Below, piece by piece: positions 1 to 17,568 of a DNA stretch of 64,000 nucleotides (position 1 is the first letter of the stretch; every line of letters begins with the position of its first letter). The notes under the pieces are model-generated. The model was given only the letters and a program-made list of their open reading frames with translations. It was not told the DNA's origin and did not search any database. Source of the DNA: Blautia sp. HCP3S3_G3. GTDB lineage: Bacteria > Bacillota > Clostridia > Lachnospirales > Lachnospiraceae. The stretch is taken from positions 1-64,000 of the forward strand of contig NZ_JBQHXR010000008.1 in NCBI RefSeq assembly GCF_052063365.1. Direction: 5' to 3'. A program made the position numbers and the translations under genes.

Positions 1-1
1 C

Positions 2-506
2 ATCCGGGTTGTACTTGACAGTGGGGTTACAGAATATCTGGCCACTAATGTAATGGATTCTGATTTATATCCGGAAATGTTTAAAGAACTGTACTTTCTC
101 AGATGGAAAACCGATTGAATCTAAATACAATGAGCTGAAAAACCAGCTTGAAATGGAAGAATTCTCAGGTGCAACTCCTGTCTCAATAGAACAGGAATTC
201 TATATCAATATGTTCTATTCTAATCTCTGCGCAATCGTTAAGAATGATGCTGATGAGAAAATAGCTGCATCTTCCAGACAGGACAATCAATACAGATATC
301 AGGCAAACCGGTCCTTTATTATCGGCAGGGTGAAATGTCTGACTACACGGTTACTTTGCGGTGAATTCCAACGCAGTGTAATATTCACTCTGTTCCGCTC
401 TGCTGCCAGACACCGGTCTCAGATACAGCCCGGACGCAGTTATGTCCGCAAGAAGAAAAAGGATAATCTGAGAACTCATTTCAATCATAGAAAATCAGCA
501 TTATAA
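2..506 (+). pseudogene. IS4-family (DDE_Tnp_1) transposase, C-terminal fragment, frameshifted and cut by the window edge
   Basis: One frame reads ...LYFLRWK and the +1 frame continues IESKYNELKNQL...EQEF...NLCAIV, which is the IS4 Y-x2-R-x3-E-x6-K C-terminal signature. The frameshift is at an A-run near position 112. The ORF ends at 506. Confidence 0.5.
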
Positions 507-804
507 GGATGTTCCTTTTCTTTCGCATACAAAATCTCATGAAAGGTGGTGATGCCCGGGCCTCCCTGTCAGAATTCCTAATATTTGTATGCACGATCAT
601 TCCTGCAGGTCAAAAGAATGTTCAAAGCTGGCGCATTTTGCATCTTTTAGTACTTGCCGGTATGGCATCATCTATTTTCAGGCTACCACTGCGCCCATAA
701 AACCAAAAGCAGCCAGATGCACTCTGGGGAATTCGAGTGTACACGCTATAAAAAATTTTGAAGCCGTATTTTCTGAATTTATCATTCTGTCAAATTACTT
801 AAGT

Positions 805-838
805 TGACCACATTGGTGCCTGTCACCAATGTGGTCAG
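805..838. repeat. Perfect 13-bp inverted repeat (gaccacattggtg-cctgtc-caccaatgtggtc). Candidate terminator or IS-end hairpin.
   Basis: Palindrome read directly from the sequence. Confidence 0.5.
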
Positions 839-1166
839 TAAATGTACGTGGTTCCTTTGATTTTTTTACGAGTTATCCCAGCTGAATCAGATGGTATTTT
901 TACTTTAAAATCGAGATACATGGCGCTCACCTTTCGAGAGTTAATTACTTCCCCTTTGTTCTACCATATTTACTCAATTTTTCAAGCAAAATCGCAGTAT
1001 TTTCAATGAAATCAAGGGATTTTTACCATCTTCATTGCCTTTTCTGACACAAACGAGAGTTAATTATTATGGAAGTTCACACAGAAGAGGTGCAACCAAT
1101 TGGCTGCACCTCCATGTTCTTGATTGTTTTTGTGGGTACTTGTATCTGCGAAATATTAAATTTCCG

Positions 1167-1203
1167 CTTGACATTAACCTATATTGGTGGTAAATGTATA
1201 GAT
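1167..1203 (+). promoter_or_regulatory. Putative sigma-A promoter (TTGACA, 17 bp, TAAATG) upstream of the 1245 gene. RBS GGAGGCGG at 1226.
   Basis: -35/-10-like hexamers with 17-bp spacing. A GGAGG RBS lies 8 nt before the ATG. Confidence 0.35.
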
Positions 1204-1244
1204 GCAGTTAATCACCAATTTGGATTATTTGGAGGCGGACTCAA

Positions 1245-2087
1245 ATGAGCTTGTATCGCACAATAATTCCCAAGTATACATTTATTCCATATGACTTTCC
1301 TACTTCTAGAGATGGAAAATATCATTGTCTGCTTGATGATGGGCAGATTTTGAGGTCTAGAAGGGAACAACTCGGTCTATCAGTTTATCAGGTTGCTGAA
1401 ATGGCGGGTATACAATTCAGTCAATATCAGCGTCTTGAATCAGGGGAACGTTTCTTTTCCGGATGTTCTATGAAAATTGGACTCTCTGTGTGTGCCGTTC
1501 TTTTGCTTGACCCTTTTGAGTTCTTCGACGTCAATGTTAAACAGCCAAAACCGGATATCATGATGCCACATGAGGTTTTTGACGGACTCCAAGATGAAAT
1601 GCCACGCCCCAAAAAAGTTGGTAGAAAGCCTATTAGGAGGGACATTATGACTGTATACTTTAATCACCCATCTTTTTCAATCATCATCCCCCGCGAAGTA
1701 TTAGTGGCTCTCGGCAAGCCCGCATATATCCAAATGATGTGGAATCTTAACGAAAAACGGCTTCTGCTTCATGTTATAGATTCTGACGCAGAGCAAGCAT
1801 TTGATATTCCACCTCATCTTTACGATAGTTGTACCGCTCTTGCTTTTCCTCGTGCTGCTATATTTTCAGAGCTAAAAGAAGGACTTGGGTGGGATACCGA
1901 GCTTTATGCAGCGGAATGTCGGATTGTCTATGATAAAACCAATGAACTTTTTATTCTCTGCGATTTAAACACCGCACAAAAATCCGAAAAAATAGTGGGA
2001 CCTTTTGCTATTCCGACATGCATTGATGATGGCATGGATGATGACGAAATCTTAGATGAGGATGGTGAAGAAAATGAAGAGCTATAA
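1245..2087 (+). CDS. DNA-binding protein: N-terminal XRE-type HTH, central AbrB/MazE-like swapped-hairpin-like segment, acidic C-terminal tail
   Basis: LRSRREQLGLSVYQVAEMAGIQFSQYQRLESGER is an HTH_3 pattern. SIIIPREVLVALGKPAYIQMMW resembles an AbrB-type hairpin. The C-terminus is DDGMDDDEILDEDGEENEEL. Confidence 0.45.
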   Translation: MSLYRTIIPKYTFIPYDFPTSRDGKYHCLLDDGQILRSRREQLGLSVYQVAEMAGIQFSQYQRLESGERFFSGCSMKIGLSVCAVLLLDPFEFFDVNVKQPKPDIMMPHEVFDGLQDEMPRPKKVGRKPIRRDIMTVYFNHPSFSIIIPREVLVALGKPAYIQMMWNLNEKRLLLHVIDSDAEQAFDIPPHLYDSCTALAFPRAAIFSELKEGLGWDTELYAAECRIVYDKTNELFILCDLNTAQKSEKIVGPFAIPTCIDDGMDDDEILDEDGEENEEL

Positions 2088-3522
2088 AGTGACAGTCCCG
2101 AATCGTCATAATCTCCCGCAGTCATTTGGTGTGAATGAATACGATGATCATATTAAACTGAGTGCCTATCTATCCAATAACATAAATAGTGTAGATATCC
2201 CTACGCAGATATCCGAGAAGCCGGTGACGGTAGTCGGAGCCGACTGTTTCTTCAATCATGGAGAAATCACAGAAATCAGTTTCCCGGATACTCTGACCAA
2301 TATAGAGACACAGGCTTTTGCTATGTGCAAGGGGATCAAGGAATTGATTCTTCCCGGCAGCATCAAAGAGATTGAAAGTTATGCATTTCGTGACTGTACG
2401 GGCCTGAAGAAGATTATTCTTCCTTCCAGTCTTAAAACATTGAAGCAAGGAACATTTGCGTTTACCTATTTACCGGATGATGTAAAGATTACTTTAAACG
2501 AGGGGCTCGAAACTATTCAATCCAAAGTTTTCTCCGGAGGAGGGGTTAATTTAGGCTTCACTGTAAAGCTGCCGTCTACTGTCAAACAGTTGGCTGACGA
2601 CGCCTTTGATCCTGGAATTAGGGTAATCCGCATTAACTATGATAAGCACATTCCTCTACAACATTCTGTAAAAGCCGCACAGGTTATACGAGAAGCTATA
2701 TCTGAGAGTGATCTGAATGACCACATTGATACAAGCATCGATTTGCTCCGTAGAATTAAGCAAGAGCATAACTTAGGTCTTTTGACTGATCACGAATGCG
2801 AAAAGCTTTTCTATGAGGAGTTTTGCAAAGGCTTTTTCGAATATCTAAAAAGCAAAAGACTTAAAGCCAAAATATGCGATAACAATTGGAACCTGTTCAT
2901 AAAAGATTACAACCTTTGGAGAGAAGGAAACACTACTCCATCCAACGCGAATGAGTCGTGGCTATTCTATGTCGATTCTGAGCCAGCCAGCCAGACAGAC
3001 AAAACATGCTTTTTCAAATTGATGGAGTCTTATTCTGTTCCTCTTGCATACTTCAAGCCTATTTCCGATAACTGCGTTTTTCCAAGTCTTCACTACGATG
3101 TGTATGGGACGTATATGGCAGGGACGGTCAAGTTTGAATTAATTGATGATAGTGGCCTGTACACATGTAATAATCCGATAGACAAGCAATTTGTTTTAAC
3201 CGATAAGACCGGCCTGAAAGCGTATATAGCTGTAAATAGACCTGCTAAAAAAGATGAACTACATAATCTTATGACTACTGCGTTTATCGGAACCGGTACG
3301 ATTGATGGATATACAAGTTCTCGAGCCCGTGAGATTTACATCTCCATTAAGGAACAACAAACAGTATGGTTTTGGTTTGTTGTTGGGAGCGATGATCTTG
3401 ATGTCCTCCATCACTTTCCACTTTGGGATTCCTACAACGCTTTTGAAACAGAGCGGCAGGAGAAAATACATGAGCACATTCTTAATCTAATGTATCGAAT
3501 CGATAATGAAAGCCATGAATGA
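2074..3522 (+). CDS. Cytoplasmic leucine-rich-repeat (BspA-type LRR) protein with a ~300-aa C-terminal domain of unknown function
   Basis: Repeated ...I.LP.S...I...AF..C..L..I motifs (ISFPDTLTNIETQAFAMCKGIKELILPGSIKEIESYAFRDCTGLKKIILPSSLKTL). No signal peptide. It overlaps the upstream gene, so the two are probably translationally coupled. Confidence 0.5.
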   Translation: MKSYKVTVPNRHNLPQSFGVNEYDDHIKLSAYLSNNINSVDIPTQISEKPVTVVGADCFFNHGEITEISFPDTLTNIETQAFAMCKGIKELILPGSIKEIESYAFRDCTGLKKIILPSSLKTLKQGTFAFTYLPDDVKITLNEGLETIQSKVFSGGGVNLGFTVKLPSTVKQLADDAFDPGIRVIRINYDKHIPLQHSVKAAQVIREAISESDLNDHIDTSIDLLRRIKQEHNLGLLTDHECEKLFYEEFCKGFFEYLKSKRLKAKICDNNWNLFIKDYNLWREGNTTPSNANESWLFYVDSEPASQTDKTCFFKLMESYSVPLAYFKPISDNCVFPSLHYDVYGTYMAGTVKFELIDDSGLYTCNNPIDKQFVLTDKTGLKAYIAVNRPAKKDELHNLMTTAFIGTGTIDGYTSSRAREIYISIKEQQTVWFWFVVGSDDLDVLHHFPLWDSYNAFETERQEKIHEHILNLMYRIDNESHE

Positions 3523-3537
3523 AACGGAGGACGAAGA

Positions 3538-3855
3538 ATGTACAGATTTGACTACTCTTTGGACGATTATCTCCGTGTAACCGATAATTGCGCCAATCAC
3601 GTTAAAATGCTCCTCCAGACCCGCTATGATGAACTGGAGCATATTCGTGAAGCTATCAATGATCGTTATCCATTCGAAGATCTGTTTCTGAAACAAGCCG
3701 AAGTGGATGATGAAAAATTTCTAATTCACAGACTTTTGGAATATTTGGATTCATGCGTTCTTGAGCGAAGGGAATTCCGAAGGGAAATGTTTTCAGATGC
3801 CGCAGGAAGTGCAACTGGTACAACAGATGATAGCGGATCAAGAGAGTCAGTCTGA
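3538..3855 (+). CDS. Hypothetical 105-aa protein, third gene of the plus-strand operon
   Basis: RBS GGAGGACGAAGAATG. No recognisable motifs. Confidence 0.4.
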   Translation: MYRFDYSLDDYLRVTDNCANHVKMLLQTRYDELEHIREAINDRYPFEDLFLKQAEVDDEKFLIHRLLEYLDSCVLERREFRREMFSDAAGSATGTTDDSGSRESV

Positions 3856-4458
3856 AAGCCACTTTTCTTTGTCCTCATCTGTTAAGTGGCTTGAAAAATT
3901 GCACGTATTTCTCGATTCTCCATAATCATTTATCATGGGCTCTTGATAAATGTTTCGACCAGCAATTACCTCCCACAGAGTAAGCAACACTTCTTTCTTG
4001 CATTTTCCTCCCAGATTTCGAATGCGAGAAAGTGGGCCAAACTCCAATATATCACGAACTGTGTGTATTCCAGCACGTTTCAAGCAATTTGTGCTACGAA
4101 CGCTCATGTCCAGTTCCTCCACAGTCATACTCATTACGTTTTGATCGACCTCAAAAATAACCCCTTCAATGCTATCTCTAAACTCCATAATCTGACACGC
4201 CATTTCCTGCTGCCTTGACTTTACAATATCACGGAAATTCGGGCAATACTTGTTTAGCCAGGCTTCGGACTCTTCCTGCGTTTCACATTGTTCAAAATCA
4301 TCCAGGTCCTCTTGATCAACATTTTTACTGAGGTCCCTACCTACATTCACCTCGAGTTCTTTCCGGACGATGTCCGAGAAGAGTTTTCCCTCTTCAACGG
4401 TCTCAAAACGGATTCCATGCCGCTCAAGTTCCTTTTGGTCGAATTCATATTTGTTCAA
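3847..4458 (-). CDS. Hypothetical protein with a C-terminal RNA polymerase alpha-subunit CTD-like helix-hairpin-helix domain (alphaCTD-like, residues ~108-165)
   Basis: [30 protein letters not shown]...[12 protein letters not shown] is near-identical to bacterial RpoA CTD (e.g. B. subtilis [24 protein letters not shown]...VRNLGRKSLEEV). The N-terminal 105 aa are unrelated to RpoA. Confidence 0.5.
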   Translation of the reverse strand: [203 protein letters not shown]

Positions 4459-4473
4459 TAGATTCTCCTCCTA

Positions 4474-6759
4474 TCAAATTGATTTTTTTAATTCCTGCCT
4501 GCGGACGGACCACTCTTCAAGGAATGCTGGTATCACTAGGTGAGAGCGTTCTTCCATAATCTTTTGAGGATTGTTCAGAAGATTCAGGATTTCTGAAGAG
4601 GTCAGCGCGCGCAAATCCATGTAGGGCTTTACAAGTCGTTCGATGCTGCTCTGTTCAATGTAAGCTGCAACAGCTTCGCCATCTTTCTGCATCTTCGGCT
4701 TATCAATCGTTAAAGTGAACGGAGCTGTTTGTCGCCCATCTACGCTCAATGTAGTTATGGCATTGAAAGCATCAAGTCTCGCCAAATTCACTTTCATATT
4801 TGGATCGTCAAAACGAACTGCTGCCGTATGTGCATCTCTGGGAGAAAGACGAAAAGCGCTGAAGTTCGCAGAATTTGACTCCAGAGCATCACGAATTTCA
4901 GCCGTCAGTTGACCCGTATGCTGATGACATAGCACCATAGCCAACCCGAACTTTCTAGACTCCGCCAGCATTCTTGGCATAGGATTCGTTTGGAACAAAG
5001 CTGCCTCATCTACCACCACAAAGTGCGTTTTGTCCCGTTCATGCCGAGCCATGGCAGCATTCCATAGCTTCATAAGTAGAAGCGTTCCAACAATCCGAGC
5101 TGCGTGAGTACCGATATTGGGAGATGCCAAATCAATCAGCGTTACCGTATCGGTATCGATTGAATTCGTGAAGTCTAAGGCATTTGCCCCAGCCCCTAGA
5201 GTCTTACGTAGCTGCTCTACAGAGATAAGCCTTTGAAACTTGCACAAATACCAATTGAGCGTTGCCTGAAAATCATTGCTTTTGTCTGTGCCATATTCCT
5301 GCTTAATAGTCTCCACAAGCTCAGGGTAGCGGTTGACGATTGCTTTACTTACTTTCAACATATTATCCTGGCTCTGGGAAATAACAGCAATGCTCTCCAA
5401 AGAAGCTCTTCTGCCGAGGAAGGCAATTGACGCCTTAGCAAATGTTGAGAACCACCGTTCCCAGCGTGGTCCGACGAAACATTCTCCCGGAGGGTTGAAA
5501 ATATCTCCGAAGAGCTCGCATAGATCGCTAATATTCCGTTCTTCCTTGGACGGATCATCACTGTCCCAAATATTCAATGGTACCGGATGCTCTGCGTCAC
5601 CGATTCGGACAACGCGCACACGTTCAGCATACTGCTTTGGAATCATTCTGAGAAGCAAGTCAATAGTACTTCCGTGCGGATCAAAAAACGTCAGACCATG
5701 ACCCTTTTCGATTGCACTCAGAATGAGCTTCGTAAGGAGTGTGGATTTGCCCGTTCCGGTTTGCCCAACGATCTGATAATGGCGTTTTATATCTGTTTCA
5801 CCGATGGTAATCCTCCTACAAATACCTGCAGTATCGACTGCTTTGCCAATTTCGACTGCGCCATGGCTCTTAGTGTTCCGATGGCTTGCAGGTATCTTCT
5901 TTACGGGTTCTTCACAGACCTGAAGACCAATAGTTGTTTCATGGATTTCAGGTTCCATCATTAGAATTCTGGCTGCATAGTCGGGTAAGATCTGGGCCTC
6001 AAATAAAGGATTTCTCCAAATTTCTTCAGCTTTCTTGGTTTCAATATCACCGACATATCTACACTTAGCCCCTTGAACTGCCTCCTCCAATACTGTCTTT
6101 AAGCGAATAGAAGGAGAAGTAGGAAGAAGGAGGAGGACTCGCATTTTTACCGGTCTCCCTAGGTAGTCCCTAACTGAAATACCATCCACATCATAACTAT
6201 GCAGCGTGTTCTTGCGGCAGAAAGTCTGTTCCTCGTCTGTAGCCGGACCTACGACAACTCGCATGACGGCTCCAGTATCTCGCAGCACGCTGACGAGCTC
6301 AGCAAATATTTCGGAGTAATGTGTTGGCCATTTAGAAATGCTATCATCTTTAGTGGTAGGGGTTCCACAGTTAAAGCCAATAATCGCTCTTGTCTGTCCT
6401 GTCTCTGTTATAGGAAGATAGACCTCATATAGCTGTGTTAGACTAGAGACAGAGGTTTTCAAGACTCCCTTGACAGTTTTTCCGGTCTTTTCAGCACACC
6501 ATCTTAGTTCTTTCTCCGTAAATTCTTCTGAACCAAAGAGACTAAGAATCGCAAGACCCTTTGTTGGAATCTCAATCTGCCAGCCAACGAAGCTTTCTTC
6601 ATTCATGACAGATGCACACTTCACCATTCGGGAAGACATTCTCTCAGAAAGCAGCTTCTTTCCTTCACTCTTTATAAGGCTCTCCAAACGGACAGCGACT
6701 GCTGTGTTGTTGGGATAGTAATTACTCTTCATCTGTAGCACCTCCTTAGTAGGCTTCAC
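4474..6759 (-). CDS. Soluble HerA/VirB4/FtsK-clade P-loop ATPase (DUF87/AAA_10-like) with ~330-aa N-terminal domain of unknown function
   Basis: Walker A GQTGTGKST followed by FDPHGS (the HerA/T4CP DPxGE motif). Walker B HFVVVDEAALF. ESRKFGLAMVLCHQHTGQL matches the EGRKYG...Q sensor/arginine-finger motif of HerA/VirB4. No TM segments. Confidence 0.6.
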   Translation of the reverse strand: MKPTKEVLQMKSNYYPNNTAVAVRLESLIKSEGKKLLSERMSSRMVKCASVMNEESFVGWQIEIPTKGLAILSLFGSEEFTEKELRWCAEKTGKTVKGVLKTSVSSLTQLYEVYLPITETGQTRAIIGFNCGTPTTKDDSISKWPTHYSEIFAELVSVLRDTGAVMRVVVGPATDEEQTFCRKNTLHSYDVDGISVRDYLGRPVKMRVLLLLPTSPSIRLKTVLEEAVQGAKCRYVGDIETKKAEEIWRNPLFEAQILPDYAARILMMEPEIHETTIGLQVCEEPVKKIPASHRNTKSHGAVEIGKAVDTAGICRRITIGETDIKRHYQIVGQTGTGKSTLLTKLILSAIEKGHGLTFFDPHGSTIDLLLRMIPKQYAERVRVVRIGDAEHPVPLNIWDSDDPSKEERNISDLCELFGDIFNPPGECFVGPRWERWFSTFAKASIAFLGRRASLESIAVISQSQDNMLKVSKAIVNRYPELVETIKQEYGTDKSNDFQATLNWYLCKFQRLISVEQLRKTLGAGANALDFTNSIDTDTVTLIDLASPNIGTHAARIVGTLLLMKLWNAAMARHERDKTHFVVVDEAALFQTNPMPRMLAESRKFGLAMVLCHQHTGQLTAEIRDALESNSANFSAFRLSPRDAHTAAVRFDDPNMKVNLARLDAFNAITTLSVDGRQTAPFTLTIDKPKMQKDGEAVAAYIEQSSIERLVKPYMDLRALTSSEILNLLNNPQKIMEERSHLVIPAFLEEWSVRRQELKKSI

Positions 6760-7042
6760 GTTCTAACATATAATCATTGATAACGGACACGAGATGTTTA
6801 GTCACTTCATAAAGTCCAGAGGATCCCGTTCTACCAACATGGAAGCAGCCAAGGGAGGCCGGGGTCCAGCGACGAACATCATCTATTGCTACTCCGTCTT
6901 TAAGGAGATCATATAGCAACCCGTTATGTCTATGATATATGAGATATTCACGCTGGCCGGAGAAATCGAGATAGATATTGAATCCGTCTCTGTTTCCATT
7001 GTTAACTGCGCACACTCTAATGTTTCTGTTATTTTTCTTCAT
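6746..7042 (-). CDS. Hypothetical 98-aa protein, first gene of the minus-strand 3-gene operon. Its 3-prime end overlaps the ATPase gene start.
   Basis: ORF with a 14-bp overlap to the downstream ATPase gene. No motifs recognised. Confidence 0.4.
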   Translation of the reverse strand: MKKNNRNIRVCAVNNGNRDGFNIYLDFSGQREYLIYHRHNGLLYDLLKDGVAIDDVRRWTPASLGCFHVGRTGSSGLYEVTKHLVSVINDYMLEREAY

Positions 7043-7237
7043 TTACTGATACCTCCACATCACAGGACTTCGTTTTTCTCCTATTCATTAAACGTAGCCT
7101 GCTAATGTTTATCGTATTTGAAATATCATTTTTGCACGTGATGGCGGCGCCCCGACTGTCTTCAGCCGCAATCGGTCGCTGTTGCCGAACTCTACGCCCC
7201 GGCAACCGGGCGATGACCACAATATGAAATTGTCAAG

Positions 7238-7340
7238 GTGCAGGTGGAAAACAAAAAAGCCGATGCTCTGATAAACAACCAAATGGGTAGACTTTCCCTC
7301 CGGGAAATCATTTAGTCACTTATCAGAGCATCGGCTCTAA
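7238..7340 (-). terminator. Long hairpin (17-bp stem agccgatgctctgataa / ttatcagagcatcggct) followed on the minus strand by TTTTTTGTTTTCC. Candidate terminator for transcripts arriving from the CRISPR/IS side.
   Basis: Inverted repeat and T-tract read directly. The ~45-nt loop contains a mini-hairpin tttccc/gggaaa. Confidence 0.4.
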
Positions 7341-7435
7341 ACATTTTTAATTTGTGTTTAGACTATATCATAGGCTGGTGCTTTTGTCAACAGGTGAATT
7401 TAAAATCTGTTTTTCTCCTGTTAATCACGGTGATA

Positions 7436-7626
7436 AAATGTACAAAAATCACGCTCAAAAAATGTACAATCAACCTCCAATAAATTAGTATCAGTTTATT
7501 GGAGGAATAAGAATGATTGGAGATAAATGGTTGAGCATAAGAAACGACAGAAAAAAAAGAATGAGTTATTCCGAAATAGGCAGGAAATATAACATCGATC
7601 GCCGTACCGCAAAGGTAAGGTACAAC
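7436..7626 (+). mobile_element. IS21-like element left end (repeated TGTACAA motifs) plus N-terminal HTH fragment of an IstA-like transposase, truncated at a partial CRISPR repeat
   Basis: tgtacaaaaatcac ... aatgtacaatcaacc direct repeats, then GGAGG RBS and ATG at 7513 encoding MIGDKWLSIRNDRKKRMSYSEIGRKYNIDRRTAK (HTH, IstA-like). The reading frame runs into the half repeat aaaggtaaggtacaac at 7611. Confidence 0.35.
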
Positions 7627-7821
7627 ATGAGCGGTTGATCGGTTCGAAGAATCGTGACTGGGAGTGTCAATTCCTCATAGGTAAGGTACAACTTTCCAGT
7701 CAATCTAAACGCGCCTTCAAGAAAGGTGTGTCAATTCCTCATAGGTAAGGTACAACGAAGCCCATAAGCGCTTCACTTCCGACGACGCAATCGTGTCAAT
7801 TCCTCATAGGTAAGGTACAAC
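7611..7821 (-). CRISPR. CRISPR array 1: one partial (16-bp) repeat plus three full 29-bp repeats GTGTCAATTCCTCATAGGTAAGGTACAAC, written on the plus strand. Spacers are 37, 35 and 36 bp. Transcribed on the minus strand.
   Basis: Exact repeats at 7664-7692, 7728-7756 and 7793-7821. The conserved leader abuts the 7821 end. The reverse complement GTTGTACCTTACCTATGAGGAATTGACAC resembles clostridial type I-B repeats (GTTGAACCTTAAC...). Confidence 0.9.
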
Positions 7822-8215
7822 AACAGTATTTTTGCTGTCTTCCCATTTATATTACCTCTTTTTTCCTCTGCTTACAAGCATTTTCTCCCAAAAAGTCGGT
7901 CAATCTCCTTTTCATCACACCCTACAAATGCCTAAATTTAAAGCTTTCCTATTATTTGCAAATAGAGGTCTGAGGTTGACCGACTTTTTCCTTCTTTCAA
8001 TTCCCTTTTTCTATATATTTTGCTCGATTTTTATAAAAAATCATCCCTTCCAAATAAATCCAATCTTCCCTCAAGCCTTGTTTTTCAAGCATTCGAAGCA
8101 CCTTTTAACTCTATATGAGGTTGACCGACTTTTTCCACACATTGTGTTCAGGAAATCGAAAATAGAAATATGTAATCTGAAAATAATATGAAATAAAGCC
8201 TAATTGTATTGTAAT
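7822..8215 (-). promoter_or_regulatory. CRISPR leader 1 (~390 bp, AT-rich). It contains three copies of a TTGACCGACTTTTT motif.
   Basis: ~95% identical to 9746-10115, which flanks array 2 on the same side. Motif copies at 7890-7903 (inverted), 7971-7990 and 8117-8136. Confidence 0.6.
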
Positions 8216-8221
8216 GGTAAC

Positions 8222-8262
8222 AGGCGGCAATGCTGTAGATTCGCATCGCCGCCTGCATTTTC
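8222..8262 (-). terminator. Hairpin (caggcggcaatgc...gcatcgccgcctg) just downstream of the GNAT gene stop. Candidate terminator.
   Basis: 13-bp stem with one mismatch, flanked by T-rich sequence on both strands. Confidence 0.4.
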
Positions 8263-8267
8263 GTTTA

Positions 8268-8894
8268 TCAGAAAATCTGACCTTCGAGTTTTAGTTTTTC
8301 TTTAGCAGGAAACTCTTTATCGAATTCTTCTGCTTTTTCTTCGTCCACAAAGTAGCATTCGGGTGGAGCGTACTCGCCGGTAATGCCATCAAGATAGCCT
8401 TCCTCCAACTCTTTACAGAGGAAGAACGATGCATCTGCGCCCTCGGGCAGTCCGTGGTACCGAATGCCGAATTTGCTTGCGTAATCAAAGCCGCTTTTAC
8501 CGTAGAAATCGATATTTCCCTCAAAGCAAAGCGCTTTGATGCCAAATTCTTTTGCGCGTTCTAAAGAATAATCCAGCAGTAATTTGCCGTAACCCTGTCG
8601 TTTCCATTCCGGCGCTATGCAAATCGGTCCCATTGCGGCAATGGGGATCTCCCTGCCGTCATCCGCCTTAATAACCGCTCGCACAAACACATTCTGTCCG
8701 ATGATTTTGCCGTCCTTTTCCAAAACGAACTTCAGTTCAGGAATGAAATCGGGGTAATTTCTCATTTGATTCAGAACATAATGCTCCAGACAGCCGGGAC
8801 GATAAACATTCCAAAATGCTTCTCTTACTAAATTCTCAACCTCTCGTTGTTCTTCTTTTCTTTCTAAACGAATTATAATGTCATTTTTATTCAT
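8268..8894 (-). CDS. GNAT family N-acetyltransferase
   Basis: Likely start MNKNDIIIRLERKEE with RBS AGGAGGAAAAACA. The acetyl-CoA-binding-type motif RQGYGKLLLDYSLERAKEFG (Q/RxxGxG/A) is present. The longer ORF-track start is probably spurious. Confidence 0.7.
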   Translation of the reverse strand: MNKNDIIIRLERKEEQREVENLVREAFWNVYRPGCLEHYVLNQMRNYPDFIPELKFVLEKDGKIIGQNVFVRAVIKADDGREIPIAAMGPICIAPEWKRQGYGKLLLDYSLERAKEFGIKALCFEGNIDFYGKSGFDYASKFGIRYHGLPEGADASFFLCKELEEGYLDGITGEYAPPECYFVDEEKAEEFDKEFPAKEKLKLEGQIF

Positions 8895-9115
8895 TGTTTT
8901 TCCTCCTGAAAATTGTTGACCGCAATATGGGAGGTTTGCGTGGAAATTGTATTTACGCCAACCTCCCGTCAGCGCACAATCTCCGGTTGCATGATTGTTT
9001 TCTTCAAAAAGCAATCTCCTTAAAATATTATTATAATCAAGCCTTTCGGCAGATTATCTGTGTATATACAAAATCAATTCGGGATCTGCACCGTTTTCGC
9101 TGTATGTGCAGATAA

Positions 9116-9144
9116 GAGTTTCGTGCCCCTGAACTCAATGTTTG
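9116..9144. repeat. 28-bp direct repeat agtttcgtgcccctgaactcaatgtttg, copy 1 (copy 2 at 10566-10593)
   Basis: Exact 28-bp match between the two loci. The two copies flank array 2, leader 2 and the Rpn fragment. Confidence 0.8.
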
Positions 9145-9305
9145 TTCGTAACATGAATGAACGCTAAATGCTACCTGAACACAATCTCCATGTATGGATC
9201 GGGATTTTAGCACAATATCCACCAAATCACCTAGTGGGATAGTGATTGCTGAATAGTTACAACATTACATACATTTAGAATATTTCCTCTTAATATTTGA
9301 ACTAC

Positions 9306-9745
9306 CTCATAGGTAAAGTATAACGTAATTCCGGCAATTGAAAATGCGTGGATTGTATAGTATCAATTCCTCATAGGTAAGGTACAACAATAGTTTCAAG
9401 AGCAAAAGATCAGCTGATCTCTCGTGTCAATTCCTCATAGGTAAGGTACAACATGCATTTTATCCCAGAAAGGACGGTGAAAAAGTATGACTAGTAAACA
9501 GTGTCAATTCCTCATAGGTAAGGTACAACTGGAACCGAAGGATCCGAATGCTGCTCCGCAGGGACAGGTGTGTCAATTCCTCATAGGTAAGGTACAACGT
9601 TTTTACTTCGAGCGTCGTGCGCTGATGATCGGTGGCGTGTCAATTCCTCATAGGTAAGGTACAACGGTTGAACCGAATTGCATTTATGTTCAAGCTCCAT
9701 ATTGAGTGTCAATTCCTCATAGGTAAGGTACAACAACAGTATTTC
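9306..9745 (-). CRISPR. CRISPR array 2: degenerate terminal repeat (9306-9335), one 1-mismatch repeat (9371-9399) and five exact 29-bp repeats. Spacers are 35, 35, 48, 40, 38 and 40 bp. Same repeat as array 1. Transcribed on the minus strand.
   Basis: Repeats at 9435-9463, 9512-9540, 9581-9609, 9648-9676 and 9717-9745. The degenerate repeats sit at the end opposite the conserved leader. Confidence 0.9.
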
Positions 9746-10115
9746 TGCTGTCTTCTCATTTATATTACCTCTTTTTTCCTCTGCTTACAAGCATTTTCTC
9801 CCAAAAAGTCGGTCAATCTCCTTTTCATCACACCCTACAAATGCCTAAATTTAAAGCTTTTCTATTATTTGCAAATAGAGATTTGAGGTTGACCGACTTT
9901 TTCCTTCTTTCAATTCCTTTTTTCTATATATTCTGCTCGATTTTTATAAAAAATCATCCTTTCCAAATAAATCCAATCTTCCCTCAAACCTTGTTTTTCA
10001 AGCATTCGAAGCACCTTTCTACTTTAAATGAGGTTGACCGACTTTTTCCACACATTGTGTTCAGGGATTGAAAATAAAAATATGCAATCTTAAAATAATG
10101 TGAAACAAGGGAACA
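9746..10115 (-). promoter_or_regulatory. CRISPR leader 2, near-identical to leader 1, with the same three TTGACCGACTTTTT motif copies
   Basis: Motif copies at 9803-9816 (inverted), 9885-9904 and 10031-10050. Similarity to leader 1 is lost after ~10115. Confidence 0.6.
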
Positions 10116-10173
10116 GAAACCTCGACTCAAAGAGTCAATGAGCCAAGTGATCCTGTCCCCTATTTCATATCTT

Positions 10174-10692
10174 TCATTTCTCATCTGTACTTTGAGCAGC
10201 CGCATTTTTAAGATAAAAGCGCAGAACATCAAGATCTTTTTCTTCAAAGATTTTTTCGCGTAGCTTTTCCGGTACTATTCCCAAATCAGATAACAGATCA
10301 ATAATATCTTCCGCTTTACCTTCCGCTTTTTCTTCATCGAGTATTTCTCTAAACTGCATATAGCGTCCCTCCATTTCACTGCTTTTTATGACATCCTCTA
10401 CCGCTTTCTGAAGACGATTAATAAAGTTATCCCGGCAGGCAGTGCCAGTATTACAGTGACCTGACTCAACATATTCCAGAAAATTTACAAGACCCTCGGA
10501 TACCTCTGCTTTATTCTTTCCCCTGGTGTTGAGGAAAATAGTGTGGCTACCGTCATTAAGACAGTAGTTTCGTGCCCCTGAACTCAATGTTTGGGATATT
10601 GTTTCCATTGCCGTCAGGTTCAAAGAATACCGGTGTATTATCAAAATGATTCTTAAGGATGTCCCGCTCTTCCAGTATTTCCAGCGTACCAT
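10174..10692 (-). pseudogene. Rpn-family (YhgA-like, PD-(D/E)XK putative transposase/recombination-promoting nuclease) C-terminal fragment
   Basis: NDGSHTIFLNTRGKNKAEVSEGLVNFLEYVE...RYMQFREILDEEKAEGKAEDIIDLLSDLGIVPEKLREKIFEEKDLDVLRFYL matches the conserved C-terminal region of TIGR01784/Rpn proteins. The N-terminal nuclease core is absent. The 28-bp repeat copy 2 lies at the homology boundary. Confidence 0.5.
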
Positions 10693-10905
10693 TTTCTCTT
10701 TCGGCTTTTGCTGTCTGCGTGCGAAGCGTAATCCTCTGAATCAGGGAATGCCTTCCGTCGCCCATAATTCCAAAAAAGATACAGGCGAATACGAAACCGA
10801 ATAAAAAGAGGGGGTTCCGGATTAAAATGACAGAAGGAACTGGACAGTAATGTGGCAGCTATCGTATAAAGCAGCGGTTCAGCCATCCATGGACGGGATG
10901 TTTTT

Positions 10906-11457
10906 TTACGCTCTTTTGATACAGCAATCCGTCCGGTCTGTTCCTTCCCTTGTCACGGTTCCATAGACGGGCCTGTATACAAGATAATAGGGGAGATAAT
11001 ATCCCTTAAAATTTCCCATGCCGGAAACGATACTTCTTCCTTCCGGTGTATTCTCATGCTGATGTCCCCAGTCCAGCATCCGCTTTCTTGCTTCCTCTTT
11101 TGTAATAAAAAATGGAATGATCAGATCCGGCATCTGTCTTTCATCGGTAAAGCTGTTATGAACCAGTTTGCTTCCGCAAAAATCGCATGTTACAGAAACC
11201 TCTCCTTCCGGAAAGATTACATGCGCTCCACAGGATGGACAGGTACATTCCTCAAATTGTTCGCTTTCTTCCGGTTTCATTGAATTCTGTTTCTGCAGTT
11301 CTCTCCAGTGAAGAACCTCATTTTTCGCTTCCTGAATCCCGGATTCTCTCCCGCAATGCGGACACCGATACGTCTGATGAAGGATATCAAACCCGGCAGG
11401 AGAACCACAATATTTACAGAAGATCCGAACCGGTTCCTTATGTATCATTTCAGACAC
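10906..11457 (-). CDS. Zinc-ribbon protein, C-terminally truncated paralog of the 363-aa gene at 17569-18660. Marks the island boundary.
   Basis: Double CxxC pairs (CKYCGS...CPHCG; CPSCG...CDFCGS) and PDLIIPFFITKEEARKRMLDWG parallel PDYVIPFKLDKKAAKEAYYKHL in the paralog. The homology stops ~180 aa before the paralog C-terminus. Confidence 0.5.
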   Translation of the reverse strand: MSEMIHKEPVRIFCKYCGSPAGFDILHQTYRCPHCGRESGIQEAKNEVLHWRELQKQNSMKPEESEQFEECTCPSCGAHVIFPEGEVSVTCDFCGSKLVHNSFTDERQMPDLIIPFFITKEEARKRMLDWGHQHENTPEGRSIVSGMGNFKGYYLPYYLVYRPVYGTVTREGTDRTDCCIKRA

Positions 11458-11579
11458 TTTTCCACCTCCCCGTTAAATTAATAATTCGGGTCCCAAAGGT
11501 CATGTTTTTTCATGCAAGAATGAAACACATGACCTTTTGACCTTTGTATCATAATAATGCACATAAGACATTACTTTCA

Positions 11580-13268
11580 TCAATACGGAAGGATGTCCAT
11601 CCAGTCGGGAGATCCGTCTTTTCTGTATGCGACAACAAAATGTCCTATTTCTGTTCCGCTGAAATAATTTACAACAATCACATTATCTTCAACGATGATC
11701 TCATATGGCCAGTAAACATCATTATTATCCGGATCTGCCCACCAGAGAATTGTTCCATCCTCAGCGATTGCAACAATTTCTGCTCCATAATAGCCTGCAG
11801 CATACATCGTTCCGTCTTCATCCGAGGCCAGGCACACAGAACCAGTAAGATGCAGCTCCTCGTAGGATCTTAACCATAATACTTCACCGGTTTCCATATC
11901 GATCATATGCAGTCCCTGAAGTGAATTGCCGATGATCACTCCCGGCCTCTCCCCTGTAACTGTAACAAAGGCATCTGTCGCAGTCAGTTCTGTAACCTCA
12001 TTGACCCCTGTTATATAACCCCAGAGCGGTTCATTTTCGCTGTTATAACAGCCGACACAAAGGGTTTCTCCGTTGTCATAGGAACGTACAGCTACGACAT
12101 GATACCGGTCATTACTGTAATTTAAAATTTCATTGCCTGAAGCCATAAGTTCCTCATAGTACAGAATACTATTGTAAAAATATCCGTTGTCACTATACCG
12201 GCTATCACCTTCCCCGGAATAAATTTCATCGCTGAAGTATTCCAGATAATCAGAAAGGACATAACCGTACAGACCATTATATTCTCCAAATACGAATTCA
12301 TCGGAATACCGCACACAATTGTGAACCAGAGCTCCAAGCGGGATTTTTATCAGACGATTGGAATTTACATCAGGATACTCTCTCAGTGACACCCATTCAT
12401 TGCAGTTCACAACCTTCATAATTGTAAGAATATTTTCTTCCCCTTCGTACTCTCCTTCATATTCCGCTTCTGTATCAATGCCATAGCCTTCCACCACGTC
12501 ATAGGTTGCGTCGTATACAAATGGAGCCTCCCATGGAACACTTATCGTTCCGTCATAAAGAGAGATCATCGGTACCCATGTCAATACTTCTCCCTGAGAA
12601 TCTTCAATGGTGACCTGACAGTCTGCGACGCATTCACTTACATTGCAGCGCAGGAGAATCGGTTCGCCGGAATCGCTGTGGTATAAAACCTCTCCTGCTT
12701 CGCCGCTGTAATTGTTGGATTCATCAATCATATATTCATGTACCGTCAAAGAAGCCTTTTCGTCACACGGATAAATACAGTAAAGTTCATTGCCTCCCTC
12801 AATCTCTACAATGTTTGCGTCAGGAATTGTTTTCAGAAACGTGCATTCTTCTGCACAGCCGCTTAAATCCAGCACCTCTTCCAGGTAAGCACTGTCGGAA
12901 GCGATGTTTCCCGCTCCTCCATTTACATATCCGAGAAAAAGTACACCGCAGATGCTGCCTGTATTTAATGCGGTCTGCCTGTGAAGGGACAGATTCCGGT
13001 ATTCTTCTGTTTCAACAGCAACAGTCGCTGTATCGACTGCACTGTCCGGTTCTGTCGTACTGTTCGTAACAGCTGAACCTTTCGTACCATTACTTACCTG
13101 TGCAAAAACGGAACTGATACACAGAATGCAGGAACCGATGAATACCCCTGTAAATATGAATATACTTTTGTGGGTTCTGTACCTGCTATTCCTTAAATCC
13201 ATACATAAACTCAAAAATCTGGTCATTTTACCTTTCCTTTCATGGTAAGCATCAAACATTATTCTCAC
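11580..13268 (-). CDS. Membrane-anchored or secreted protein with C-terminal beta-propeller-like repeats
   Basis: N-terminal hydrophobic segment IFIFTGVFIGSCILCISSVFA. Repeated DGT.LW/GEVLW motifs near the C-terminus. Confidence 0.35.
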   Translation of the reverse strand: MRIMFDAYHERKGKMTRFLSLCMDLRNSRYRTHKSIFIFTGVFIGSCILCISSVFAQVSNGTKGSAVTNSTTEPDSAVDTATVAVETEEYRNLSLHRQTALNTGSICGVLFLGYVNGGAGNIASDSAYLEEVLDLSGCAEECTFLKTIPDANIVEIEGGNELYCIYPCDEKASLTVHEYMIDESNNYSGEAGEVLYHSDSGEPILLRCNVSECVADCQVTIEDSQGEVLTWVPMISLYDGTISVPWEAPFVYDATYDVVEGYGIDTEAEYEGEYEGEENILTIMKVVNCNEWVSLREYPDVNSNRLIKIPLGALVHNCVRYSDEFVFGEYNGLYGYVLSDYLEYFSDEIYSGEGDSRYSDNGYFYNSILYYEELMASGNEILNYSNDRYHVVAVRSYDNGETLCVGCYNSENEPLWGYITGVNEVTELTATDAFVTVTGERPGVIIGNSLQGLHMIDMETGEVLWLRSYEELHLTGSVCLASDEDGTMYAAGYYGAEIVAIAEDGTILWWADPDNNDVYWPYEIIVEDNVIVVNYFSGTEIGHFVVAYRKDGSPDWMDILPY

Positions 13269-13381
13269 ATGTCTGATTTTTTATCATATCCATTATGATA
13301 AATAAATCAGTTCAGCCGGAGAATCAACTCCGGCTGAATCATTCAACTTAAGCATCCTTTTCACTCGAATCGATCTGCTTT

Positions 13382-16300
13382 TCAGGCGTCTCCTATTCGT
13401 TCGAACAATACCTTTTCTCCGTTTTCTTCCACACAGAGCATGCCATCTTCCGTCAATGTAAGAGTCTGGTTATCAATATGACCGATTCCGTTCTCGAATG
13501 TCCATGGGGCCTCCTTAACCTCTCCATTGTCCGTAATCTGTACGGTACCGTCTGCATTCAGTGTCATCTGCATTACCATGCCTAAATCAGCCAGATTTAA
13601 TTCCATATCTTCTGCTACAATTTTTACTGCATTCCATACACCTGTGAAAGAAGCCATATCTCCTCCCGCATCTGCACTTGGAGTCTGTCCCTCAGAAGAC
13701 GTTTCTTTCTCTTCATCCGGTGTTTCCTGAACGGCATCCTGTTTCTCTGTGCCTGCGTCAGGTTTCTCTGCTTTCTTCGCCGGTACCATACTGCTGTCAT
13801 ATGTCACATCATACGGGGACATGAGTTCTATTACATTCGGTTTTTCAGGATCCAAAACCGTGCAGTCTTCTTTTATTACGTGACTTTCATCCGCAACCGG
13901 TCCCAGATTTCCTTTTTCCCAGACACTGTAGAACGCTCCGAAGGCTTCATCTGATGCGGAAGCCGGAAGCTTCATAACAAGATCTGCAGCACAGTCTCCG
14001 GAGCAGCTATCCAGAGTATCAAACACTTCTGCATCGGTAAACTCAAAGCAGATGACAGACAGTGAAGTACAACCATAGAAAGCGCTGGCGGAGAAGCTTT
14101 CCACACCGTCACGAACATGGATTTCCTTCAGGTTTGTACATTCTCTGAAAGCAGTGGCGCCAATTTGTTTTGCATTGACTACCAACGATTCCATACCACA
14201 GCCTCTGAAGCAGTCTTCACCCACATAGTCTGTTTTTCCTTTGTACCATGCCTGAGTAAGTGAGCTGCAGCCATCAAATAAATAGTTGTCAAGCATTTTC
14301 GTTCCGTTTACAAAGACCACCGTTTTCAGTGACCGGTTGTTATAGAAAGTGCCTCTTCCGGTATTTTCAAGCGGTCCGTAACAGATCACCGTTTCAAGCT
14401 GCTGACAGTACTCAAAGGCAGAGTCTTCGATGTCTGTTACTGTTTCCGGAATCACAAGGGAACGAAGATGCAGCCAGTCATCCTGATTTGTATCCATTTC
14501 TGTATCTGTGTAATCACGGGCACATTCAAATGCATTCCTTGCGATCTTCTTTACTTCGACACCGCCGATCGTGCGCGGAATGACAACGTCGATATCTGTT
14601 CCGGTATACCCGGTGACGGTTCCTGTTTCCGCATCAAAGTCGAAATATTCTTCTGATGCAGGAATAAACGGCATTTTTGCAAACGCACTTTCTTCACTTT
14701 CACGTACGAGGGCATCATACCACGGATAATCCAGAACATCATTCCATGCGGCAAGCTGCTCATCTGTCGCATAATCACTCATTCGGATACCTTCAAGCCC
14801 GATTCCGGACAGTGCTTCCACATTTACTTCAAGATCTGCAGGAATCACCAGACTTGTGATCTGGGTTCCTTCAAAAGCACAGGCTCCGATCGAAGTAACA
14901 GATTCCGAAAGCGTTATTGCTTCCAGATTCTGACAATTTTTAAAGGCTCCGGCTCCGATTGTCGTAACAGAATCAGGAATCTTTATCTCTTTTAGATTCT
15001 GACAATTTTCAAAGGCTCCGGCTCCGATTGTAGTGACCGAATCAGGAATCTTTATCTCGTTCAGATTCTGACAATTACGGAATGCTCCATCTCCAATGGT
15101 TGTTACGGAATCAAACAGATCGACAGTTTCCACTACACTGTCTGCAAATGCTTCACTGCCGATATAAGTAAATACATCATTATACGGAACGGAAAAATAT
15201 TTTACCGTCTGATTGCCCTTAAATGCACCATCTGCCAGACCCGTCACCGGTTTATACTCGGAGCCGTCAACACTGTATTCGTCATATGGACGGATATTTG
15301 TCATTTCACCAGTGTAGCCTGTCATATAAAAGGATGCTCCGTCAGGACTTTCAATATAAGTGTCAAGATTATTGTCGCAATACTGAACATCCGGATTCTG
15401 GTTGCGCCATACGCGGCAGCTGAGTCCCAGATTATCTACGATCTGCTGAACATCCAGCATTTCCTGCTTCGTACATTTGGTATTCAGATCAATATTCGCG
15501 AGTAATGTGCATTCTGCAAATGCAGACTCCGCAATATACGGAAGCTCTGCTGCATCGATATAGACATAGCTTATGCTGCAGGATGCAAAAGCATTTTCTC
15601 CGATATACTTTACAGTAGAAGGCATATAAACCCTGTTCATCCACTGACAATTATAAAAAGCATTGTCACCAATATTGGTCAAACCTTCCGGCAGATTGAG
15701 TGAACCCTCAACAGCCGCATAAACAAATGCTTCATCTCCTATATATTCAAGACCTTCCGGAAGTTCCAGTGCAAACCCTCTGTAAGAATGGCAAAAAGCA
15801 CGATCCCCTACACTTTTCAGTGTAGATGGAATTTTTACATACAGCAGTGTCGCTGCGTCCATAAATGCTTCATCTTCAATTGTTGTCAGTCCTTCCGGAA
15901 GTGTTACATAGCAAAGATAACGATTTCCCTGAAAAGCATTGGGTCCGATGGAAGTGACCGGAACCCCGTCAATTGCTTCCGGTACATCCAGTCTTCCGGA
16001 AAAACCACTGTATTGGGTGATTGTGCCGGTTGCTGCGTCAAATGTGATATTTTCAAGGTCAGAGACCGGTTCCTGTCTGACTGCATTCTGGCCGCTTGAC
16101 TGTACACTTAACATGCTGCCGGCCGCTTCAAGAGCTGCAGTATAGGCTTCTACCTGGTCATCCGGAACATAGGCAACCGCATCCTGCGCAAGTTCTGTAA
16201 ATGCACCCGGAGCAATTACCGGACATTCGCCCTCGAACGTTACGGAAGTAATTCCGCTACAGAAACCGAACGCTCCTTTGTCAATATAGCATACTCCGGA

Positions 16301-16672: not shown

Positions 16673-16731
16673 ACTTTATTCCCTCCTGATCTTTCTTTCG
16701 CTGAAGACGTCCCGGAGGATTTCTGCAGTCA

Positions 16732-17556: not shown

Positions 17557-17568
17557 GATCTTCCCCTC

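Follow-up and report, generated by a model that had tools for sequence, protein, structure and literature searches.

Organization of the locus

The DNA analysed here (the window) is a 64,000-nt stretch of Blautia sp. HCP3S3_G3 (family Lachnospiraceae; assembly GCF_052063365.1, contig NZ_JBQHXR010000008.1, positions 1 to 64,000). Close to its start lies a cassette of six genes, designated g1 to g6, that form two convergent operons (Table 1). The plus-strand genes g1, g2 and g3 are tightly packed and constitute one operon, encoding an XRE-type helix-turn-helix (HTH) regulator, a leucine-rich repeat (LRR) protein with a large C-terminal domain (the C-domain) and a small acidic protein. This operon runs tail to tail with the minus-strand operon g6-g5-g4, which encodes a small protein, a P-loop ATPase and a DUF5663 protein carrying an RNA polymerase (RNAP) alpha C-terminal domain (alphaCTD). 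The positions of the six open reading frames (ORFs) given in an earlier sequence-only reading of this DNA were all confirmed by an ORF map. All six are real genes: homologue clusters were found for g1 (>110), the g2 C-domain (218) and g3 (20), and the exact proteins are annotated for Blautia sp. HCP3S3_G3 (MGN8631703-708). The names given there are generic (HTH domain-containing, LRR domain-containing, hypothetical, RNAP alpha CTD domain-containing, hypothetical).

Table 1. Features of the six-gene cassette, in window coordinates
Feature	Position	Strand	Description
g1	1245-2087	+	280 aa; XRE-HTH regulator (HTH residues 32-93) with beta-rich C-terminal domain (134-246) and acidic tail
g2	2074-3522 (longest ORF from 2056, 488 aa)	+	Predicted cytoplasmic LRR_5 and C-domain protein, 482 aa
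LRR_5 (BspA-type) repeat domain of g2	2230-2610	+	Pfam PF13306, E=9.7e-26, residues 59-185
C-domain of g2	2647-3519	+	~290 aa; helical N-half, seven-strand beta part, long C-terminal helix; unannotated family
g3	3538-3855	+	105 aa; small, acidic, isoelectric point 4.6; conserved core is residues 1-75
g4	3847-4458	-	203 aa; DUF5663 and alphaCTD; PF03118 E=9e-16, PF18908 E=1.5e-8
g5	4474-6759	-	761 aa; soluble HerA/FtsK/TrwB-class P-loop ATPase; ~300-aa N-terminal domain of unknown type
g6	6746-7042	-	98 aa; first gene of minus operon; no detectable family
Conserved portable block	1082-7448	.	Carries all six genes; 98.8-99.3% nucleotide identity to loci L019, L018 and L006; flanks unrelated
5' region of plus operon	1142-1244	+	TTGACA at 1168-1173 and ribosome-binding site of g1; common to all four copies; homology to L018 begins here
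Promoter-like site upstream of g6	7362-7390	-	TTGACA-17-TATAGT with TG; 11/12 consensus match; consensus match only

The 5' region of the plus operon is predicted from its sequence to hold the promoter, and the ribosome-binding site of g1 (GGAGG) lies 9 nt before the ATG. A 32-bp overlap of g1 and g2, described in the sequence-only reading, applies to the longest ORF only; gene calls, PGAP and the N-termini of homologues (P0001 and P0180; all 482 aa) place the start of g2 at ATG 2074, which has GAGGA 10 nt before it and reduces the overlap to 14 bp. As that reading had stated, g3 starts 15 nt past the g2 stop codon behind a strong ribosome-binding site (GGAGGA, 7 nt before the start). The true start of g5 is likely ATG 6732. 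The overlap of the g3 and g4 stop codons reported at 3847-3855 is present here (9 bp) but is not conserved in the other copies of the cassette, with a 3-nt gap in L006 and L019 and an 18-nt overlap in L018, the difference being due to single-nucleotide polymorphisms. What is conserved is the close junction of the two operons, with no spacer and no terminator-like site in any copy. A hydropathy scan detected no transmembrane segment or signal peptide in any of the six proteins. Scans with Pfam, NCBIfam, PADLOC and PHROGs returned generic domains only, with nothing for the C-domain, g3 or g6, and Rfam gave no match over window 1-10500.

Mobility of the cassette

Near-identical copies of the ~6.3 kb block were found in Coprococcus intestinihominis CLA-AA-H190 (L018), in a metagenome-assembled genome (L019) and in L006. 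Homology ends at the block edges; in L018 it spans window 1142-7406. The flanking DNA differs. The window copy lies between an insertion sequence (IS) remnant and a CRISPR-like array ~140 bp away, L019 and L006 flank the block with an S24/IclR LexA-like repressor, accompanied in L019 by IS5- and IS21-type transposases, and L018 has GNAT and hydrolase genes and rubrerythrin. Because a block of ~99% identity sits in at least three different flanks, the six genes travel together between genera. The near-identical Blautia and Coprococcus copies indicate recent horizontal spread in the human gut. Cassette DNA was not found in PLSDB plasmids or GenBank phages.

Recurrence of the components in diverged relatives

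Diverged loci contained several of the cassette components in other orders and orientations. In L045-L047, a single strand carries genes for an ATPase and a DUF5663-alphaCTD protein (65.6% identical to g5 and 46.5% identical to g4, respectively), an LRR protein (43% in the LRR part), a 109-aa protein and a g3 homologue (63%). The C-terminal part of this LRR protein is a different, duplicated module of ~95 aa and not the g2 C-domain. In L001-L004, the LRR is encoded by a separate gene (58% identity to its counterpart in g2), which is followed by one for a protein joining an HD-like domain to a C-domain (57%), and the pair is convergent with a gene for a 627-aa alphaCTD-AAA+-AAA_lid_6 protein. 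A protein of the same alphaCTD-AAA+ type (1e-154) occurs in L043, where genes for a Sel1-repeat protein and a g3 homologue come after it. Among plasmids, the best match to g5 was a DUF87 ATPase of Rhodococcus ruber pYYL1.1, with a DUF5663 protein encoded immediately after it. Five pairs of components were each seen in at least two independent arrangements: ATPase with DUF5663, alphaCTD with LRR, alphaCTD with g3, LRR with C-domain, and repeat protein with g3.

These neighbourhoods suggest a recurring core, made up of an alphaCTD (helix-hairpin-helix, HhH) module, present either as a DUF5663-alphaCTD protein with a HerA/FtsK-class ATPase or fused to AAA+. The core would also include a repeat protein (of the g2 LRR_5 subtype or Sel1) with a swappable C-terminal module, and the small g3 protein. 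It is likely that the plus- and minus-strand operons form one unit. The proposal that the convergent operons are a linked cassette is thus borne out, both by the ~99% identical block in at least three flanks and by the recurrence in diverged relatives. Co-travel of the plus-strand genes with the ATPase operon in other genomes holds for g2 and g3, which are found with ATPase or alphaCTD genes, but not for g1, which also heads unrelated operons. An obligate g1-g2-g3 trio is unsupported, as relatives of g1 head unrelated operons and relatives of the C-domain and g3 occur without g1. The L001 locus (ERZ27256806 contig) is rich in conflict genes over 10294-17828, with GH-E (HNH toxin), Imm33, DO-GTPase1/2, WYL and S24 peptidase genes.

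The LRR protein and the C-domain family

The LRR part of g2 consists of about six LRR_5 repeats. Hydropathy values were low, with a maximum 10-residue value of 0.05 in the first 40 aa and a maximum 19-residue value of 0.86 (scan only). The g2 protein is predicted to be cytoplasmic, since it is without a signal peptide and a relative has the same LRR subtype joined to TIR. The earlier description of an intracellular LRR protein without an attached NTPase (by Pfam) and with an unknown C-terminal domain of ~300 aa was supported on each point; the C-terminal domain matches nothing in current libraries.

Pfam gave no match over g2 residues ~198-488, or over the C-domain in any of the 90 family members scanned. 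Word-indexed searching identified six clusters of C-domain homologues, while an exhaustive profile search identified 218 representatives at 50% identity, most of them stand-alone proteins of 280-300 aa. An AlphaFold2 (AF2) model built from a 90-sequence alignment had high confidence (pLDDT 93.7, pTM 0.85) and showed a domain that starts with four helices, continues with seven beta-strands and ends in a long C-terminal helix. A search of PDB sequences with the C-domain profile returned noise only, and no PDB or viral-structure relative was identified. Gly, Pro, Trp and Tyr account for most of the near-invariant positions, which also include one Glu in a 'G-x-I-E-G-Y-T' loop, and by this pattern the domain fits a binding module better than a classical enzyme. 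The C-domain family is new to annotation and appears structurally new.

The companions of the C-domain are varied. It is fused to LRR_5 in the window, L022 and P0180; to an HD_4-like SpoT-type domain in several proteins, weakly by Pfam (E 4e-4 to 0.017), with the H...HD...D motif intact in P0002 and changed to HE or HG in L023/L024; and to an ADP-ribosylglycohydrolase (ADP_ribosyl_GH) in one member (P0158, E=2e-62). Linkage of LRR and C-domain takes four arrangements, including the fusions just named, adjacent genes (L001, L005) and, in L024, a gene order of MBL, HD-like-C-domain and TIR_2 with 4xLRR_5. In L020/L031, a C-domain gene without a fusion partner precedes, by 13 nt, a gene for a 1187-aa DUF4062-nSTAND1 protein, with integrase and Xis genes adjoining. 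In Avs and other defence systems, DUF4062 is reported to be the NADase effector, termed 'NIR' (bioRxiv 10.64898/2026.09.04.749371). In L032 the neighbours are MATCAP-like, receiver, Sel1, DnaJ-like and WYL genes. No alphaCTD or HerA-like gene stands alongside the C-domain genes of L024, L020/L031 or L032. The family was not found in IMG/VR contigs, PLSDB plasmids or GenBank phages. In L028, positions 543-1388 encode a 281-aa XRE HTH protein with an intact SpoT-type HD motif ('ILLHDVCEDCG'), directly upstream of a stand-alone C-domain gene.

Confidently modelled, and repeatedly fused to or found beside TIR, NIR-STAND, HD and ADP-ribosylglycohydrolase domains, the C-domain is a good candidate for a new domain that binds signals or acts as an adaptor in immune pathways. 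These companions, together with MBL, point to immune functions and to NAD or nucleotide chemistry.

The XRE regulator

The sequence-only reading assigned three parts to g1: an XRE HTH, an AbrB/MazE-like segment and a DNA-mimic-like acidic tail. The HTH was confirmed by HTH_3, which scored 28.7 bits against a Pfam cut-off of 23 over residues 36-69, and the domain has the five-helix lambda-repressor-like fold. Past the HTH, the model comprises a poorly modelled linker, a beta-beta-alpha-beta-beta unit at 134-177, an alpha/beta part at 198-246 and the low-confidence acidic tail. In the AF2 model, the unit is built from strands 134-139 and 144-149, helix 150-155 and strands 161-167 and 172-177. 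The sequence 'IIIPREVLVALG', within the segment termed AbrB-like, falls on strand 2 and the helix. Such a unit is therefore modelled, but without a profile match: Pfam gave no SpoVT_AbrB/MazE match at E<=1, and a profile of the C-terminal half found no AbrB/MazE chain among PDB sequences at E<=10. Alignment by hhalign to four AbrB/SpoVT/Abh/MazE sequences (entered by hand) gave the expected register, but with E=0.017 and a probability of 2.75%. A search of PDB sequences with g1 was empty or returned noise. An AbrB-like identity of the segment is plausible but unproven. The tail holds 13 Asp or Glu among its last 25 residues, is modelled at low confidence (pLDDT ~62) and is short, variable or absent in many family members; it lacks the structured, conserved acidic surface of a DNA mimic, and that suggestion was not supported.

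The g1 family contains >110 clusters, at 38-68% identity over the full length. In L007 a relative stands by itself near a serine-recombinase element, in L013 one adjoins an HTH-S24 repressor within a prophage-like region, and in L039-L042 and L090 relatives are found directly upstream of an AAA_25 gene. In viral contigs of IMG/VR (L076-L088, ~5480-6260), the two halves are separate adjacent genes, with a protein of ~125-135 aa matching the C-terminal half (profile 131-208) followed by an HTH protein of ~105-116 aa (profile 16-93). The split halves indicate that g1 is a fusion of two phage-borne modules. Judged by all of these contexts, g1 is best described as an interchangeable regulator module that heads other operons too and is not system-specific. 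In comparison with XRE-family immunity regulators of phages and integrative and conjugative elements (P22 C2, 434 cI, ImmR, the CapH N-domain), g1 adds a conserved N-terminal motif, a beta-rich C-terminal domain of ~115 aa and the acidic tail, and has no S24 peptidase domain.

Upstream of g1, a near-palindrome of 26 bp (GAGGTGCAACCAA/TTGGCTGCACCTC) occupies 1087-1112, at the left edge of the conserved block, and is shared with L019 and L006 but not L018. A perfect 14-bp hairpin (TGACCACATTGGTG / CACCAATGTGGTCA) is located at 805-837, and a CACCAAT(N)TGG motif occurs twice, at 823 and 1212. From their sequence, these are possible operator or recombination sites.

The small protein, the alphaCTD protein and the ATPase

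The g3 family comprises 20 clusters and had no match in Pfam or PHROGs. Its homologues adjoin alphaCTD proteins in L045 and L043, and one metagenomic protein (P0135, 167 aa) joins a g3-type domain to a sigma-70 region 4 HTH (PF04545). This fusion hints that g3 may act on or with the transcription machinery. One relative (L015) lies downstream of a coupling protein of a type IV secretion system (T4SS), in a conjugative-element context and without other cassette partners.

The alphaCTD of g4 is 48-51% identical to genuine Firmicute RpoA. It has the HhH fold and, by our own alignment, the DNA-contact residues, keeping 'VRSTNCL' and 'NLGGK'. In Escherichia coli, the DNA-contact residues of alphaCTD are R265, N268, G296 and K298. 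We take 'VRSTNCL' to correspond to R265/N268 and 'NLGGK' to G296/K298. The Coprococcus copy (L018) lacks 154 bp (window 4307-4460); its g4 has thereby lost the first 51 codons (the DUF5663 N-terminal part) and may be truncated or non-functional.

The ATPase g5 matched DUF87 and TrwB_AAD_bind above the Pfam cut-offs (34 bits vs 20.5 for the latter) and phrog_5156 (E=7e-36), and is 33% identical to the DUF87 protein of Rhodococcus pYYL1.1. Its Walker-A motif reads GQTGTGKS, at about residues 327-334. Matches to nSTAND were sub-threshold (19 bits vs 34), and those to HerA_antiphage models reached 15-20 bits against cut-offs of 800-850. No g5 relative was found in phages or IMG/VR, and its search of PDB sequences was empty or returned noise. 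No relatives of g6 were found beyond the near-identical cassette copies.

Comparison with known systems

The cassette resembles NLR-like and Avs systems in combining a cytoplasmic LRR repeat protein, a P-loop NTPase and modular, swappable end domains, and a stand-alone C-domain member shares an operon with a DUF4062(NIR)-STAND protein. It differs from them in that its NTPase, of the HerA/FtsK class (or AAA+), is a protein in its own right and not a STAND domain fused to repeats, that alphaCTD is an added core part, and that no recognised effector domain is present. With no NTPase on g2 and sub-threshold nSTAND on g5, NLR-like/STAND membership was rejected. Similarity to HerA-based defence (SIR2-HerA, DUF4297-HerA) and to mad8 of MADS is limited to weak matches of g5, which carries DUF87. 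The cassette has no SIR2, DUF4297, methyltransferase or other mad gene, its partner being a DUF5663-alphaCTD protein. HerA-system membership was rejected on the low HerA_antiphage scores and the lack of a SIR2 or DUF4297 partner in the block, and MADS membership on a partial mad8 and a mad3 match to g5 alone, with no mad match in the other five proteins. A type IV coupling protein was also rejected, since TrwB_AAD_bind is present but g5 is without a transmembrane segment and the block is without relaxase or T4SS genes.

In a manner reminiscent of Thoeris-like TIR signalling, a TIR-LRR_5 protein and an HD-like-C-domain protein occur as partners in relatives, like a signal maker and a signal reader. 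The window cassette has no TIR, and signalling or ligand binding by the C-domain is only putative. Surface proteins of the BspA type share the LRR_5 repeat family of g2, but g2 is short, carries neither a secretion signal nor an anchor and has an intracellular module attached to its repeats. By analogy, the nearest counterpart of the cassette would be a split defence system of the NLR/Avs or HerA type, yet by their defining features the cassette belongs neither to those families nor to MADS or the coupling proteins. It appears to be new as an NTPase-centred conflict system with a structurally new-looking domain family.

Possible function

The function we infer for the six genes, with confidence about evenly divided, is that of a cytoplasmic, horizontally mobile system of gut Lachnospiraceae for defence against phages or other mobile genetic elements. 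With its mobility, its repeat sensor and NTPase, its swappable end modules and its interchangeable regulator, the cassette resembles NTP-dependent conflict systems in its parts list. In such a system the LRR would provide a protein-recognition surface and the C-domain a ligand-binding or output module, alphaCTD would recruit the ATPase to DNA or the transcription apparatus, g5 would serve as an energy-consuming switch or motor, and g1 would control the plus operon as an interchangeable XRE-type regulator. If this is a defence system, it represents a new immunity architecture of a split repeat sensor, a non-STAND ATPase and an RNAP-alphaCTD module, in a host group that is abundant but poorly explored for immunity.

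Several observations weigh against defence. No recognisable effector (nuclease, TIR, SIR2, pore-former or protease) was found in the window cassette, and the scarcity of conserved polar residues in the C-domain does not indicate an enzymatic effector role. PADLOC gave nothing for g1-g4 and g6 and weak matches only for g5 (mad8 partial, E=8.6e-13; mad3, 0.011; HerA models, <=3e-8). Neither g6 nor g1 is conserved in the diverged relatives, and the context evidence consists of about ten independent neighbourhoods, with no statistical survey. Finally, the transcription-type parts (alphaCTD, sigma region 4 on a g3 relative, XRE-HTH) would also suit a mobile-element module for regulation or host takeover.

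The main alternative, though improbable, is that the cassette is counter-defence or host-takeover cargo of a mobile element. The LRR-C-domain protein and its HD and ADP-ribosylglycohydrolase cousins would bind or disarm host immune proteins or nucleotide signals, and alphaCTD would redirect transcription, or shield it, by mimicking host RpoA. The C-domain family's MBL neighbours and its fusions with hydrolases of signal type (ADP_ribosyl_GH, HD-like) are consistent with this, as are a mobile, IS-flanked cassette, the occurrence of g1 modules and of relatives of L001-type neighbours in IMG/VR viral contigs, the ~50% identity of the g4 alphaCTD to genuine RpoA and the sigma region 4 fusion of a g3 relative. 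Against it, the C-domain was absent from the phage genomes, plasmids and IMG/VR contigs searched, and the ATPase from phages and IMG/VR. C-domain genes share operon and orientation with immune-type proteins (NIR-STAND, TIR-LRR) and are not carried by an invading element, and several fusions carry a degenerate HD dyad (HE/HG), a point against signal hydrolysis as the shared function.

A specific form of the defence function, in which g4 is a bait copy of alphaCTD, is considered doubtful. T4 Alt/ModA-type ADP-ribosyltransferases modify alphaCTD at R265. Phage factors that target or modify the host alphaCTD would hit the decoy, the LRR protein and g3 would read the event, the C-domain would bind an NAD- or nucleotide-derived product, and the ATPase would respond on DNA. 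Binding of such a product is in line with the ADP-ribosylglycohydrolase and HD-like fusions. No published description of DUF5663, of non-RpoA alphaCTD proteins in defence or of the LRR/C-domain family was found in the literature.

That the locus consists of two unrelated neighbouring modules, a g1-g3 operon of regulator and cargo beside an independent g4-g6 ATPase system, is quite unlikely. This would account for the relatives of g1 that head other operons, the C-domain relatives without any alphaCTD or HerA-like gene, and the Rhodococcus pair of ATPase and DUF5663 without LRR, g3 or C-domain. It is disfavoured by the co-directional operon of L045-L047, which joins ATPase, alphaCTD, LRR and g3, and by alphaCTD-AAA+ beside LRR and C-domain genes (L001) and beside a g3 homologue (L043). 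Since alphaCTD is rare outside rpoA, three independent co-occurrences are unlikely to have arisen by chance.

Still less probable is an accessory module for DNA translocation or conjugation, in which g5 would pump DNA in the manner of FtsK or a coupling protein and the DNA-binding alphaCTD protein would target it. The TrwB_AAD_bind match, weak TraD and CedD matches, distant homologues in conjugation gene clusters (Niallia plasmid) and the g3 relative downstream of a T4SS coupling protein (L015) would fit, but g5 has no transmembrane segment, no relaxase or T4SS gene is present in the block or in L045/L037, and the block is only 6.3 kb and sits in three different flanks. A role of g2 as a BspA-type surface adhesin was rejected on sequence evidence as extremely improbable: the LRR_5 domain and a weak match to the adhesin HupY/LrrG (61 bits vs a cut-off of 1250) are outweighed by the lack of a signal peptide, transmembrane segment or anchor, by the fusion of the same LRR subtype to an intracellular TIR in a relative and by partners that are cytoplasmic domains.

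Flanking features

Upstream of the block, window 1-506 contains the C-terminal remnant of an IS4-type transposase ('...YFLRWKTD*ESKYNELK...', with a YREK-like signature and a stop or frameshift near 115), as read from the sequence only; blastn of this region against plasmids returned nothing. Two CRISPR-like arrays lie downstream, at 7591-7822 (four repeats) and 9289-9735 (seven repeats), with the core GTGTCAATTCCTCATAGGTAAGGTACAAC and a spacing of 64-77 nt. Neither matched CRISPR-DR families in Rfam, and in both the lowest-coordinate repeat copy is degenerate. A 300-nt duplication with 97% identity (7793-8092 and 9706-10005) begins in the last repeat of each array. The duplicates are probably array leaders, and as leaders they would imply transcription of the arrays on the minus strand, towards the cassette. 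An ORF of 248 aa (8268-9014) is located between the two arrays.

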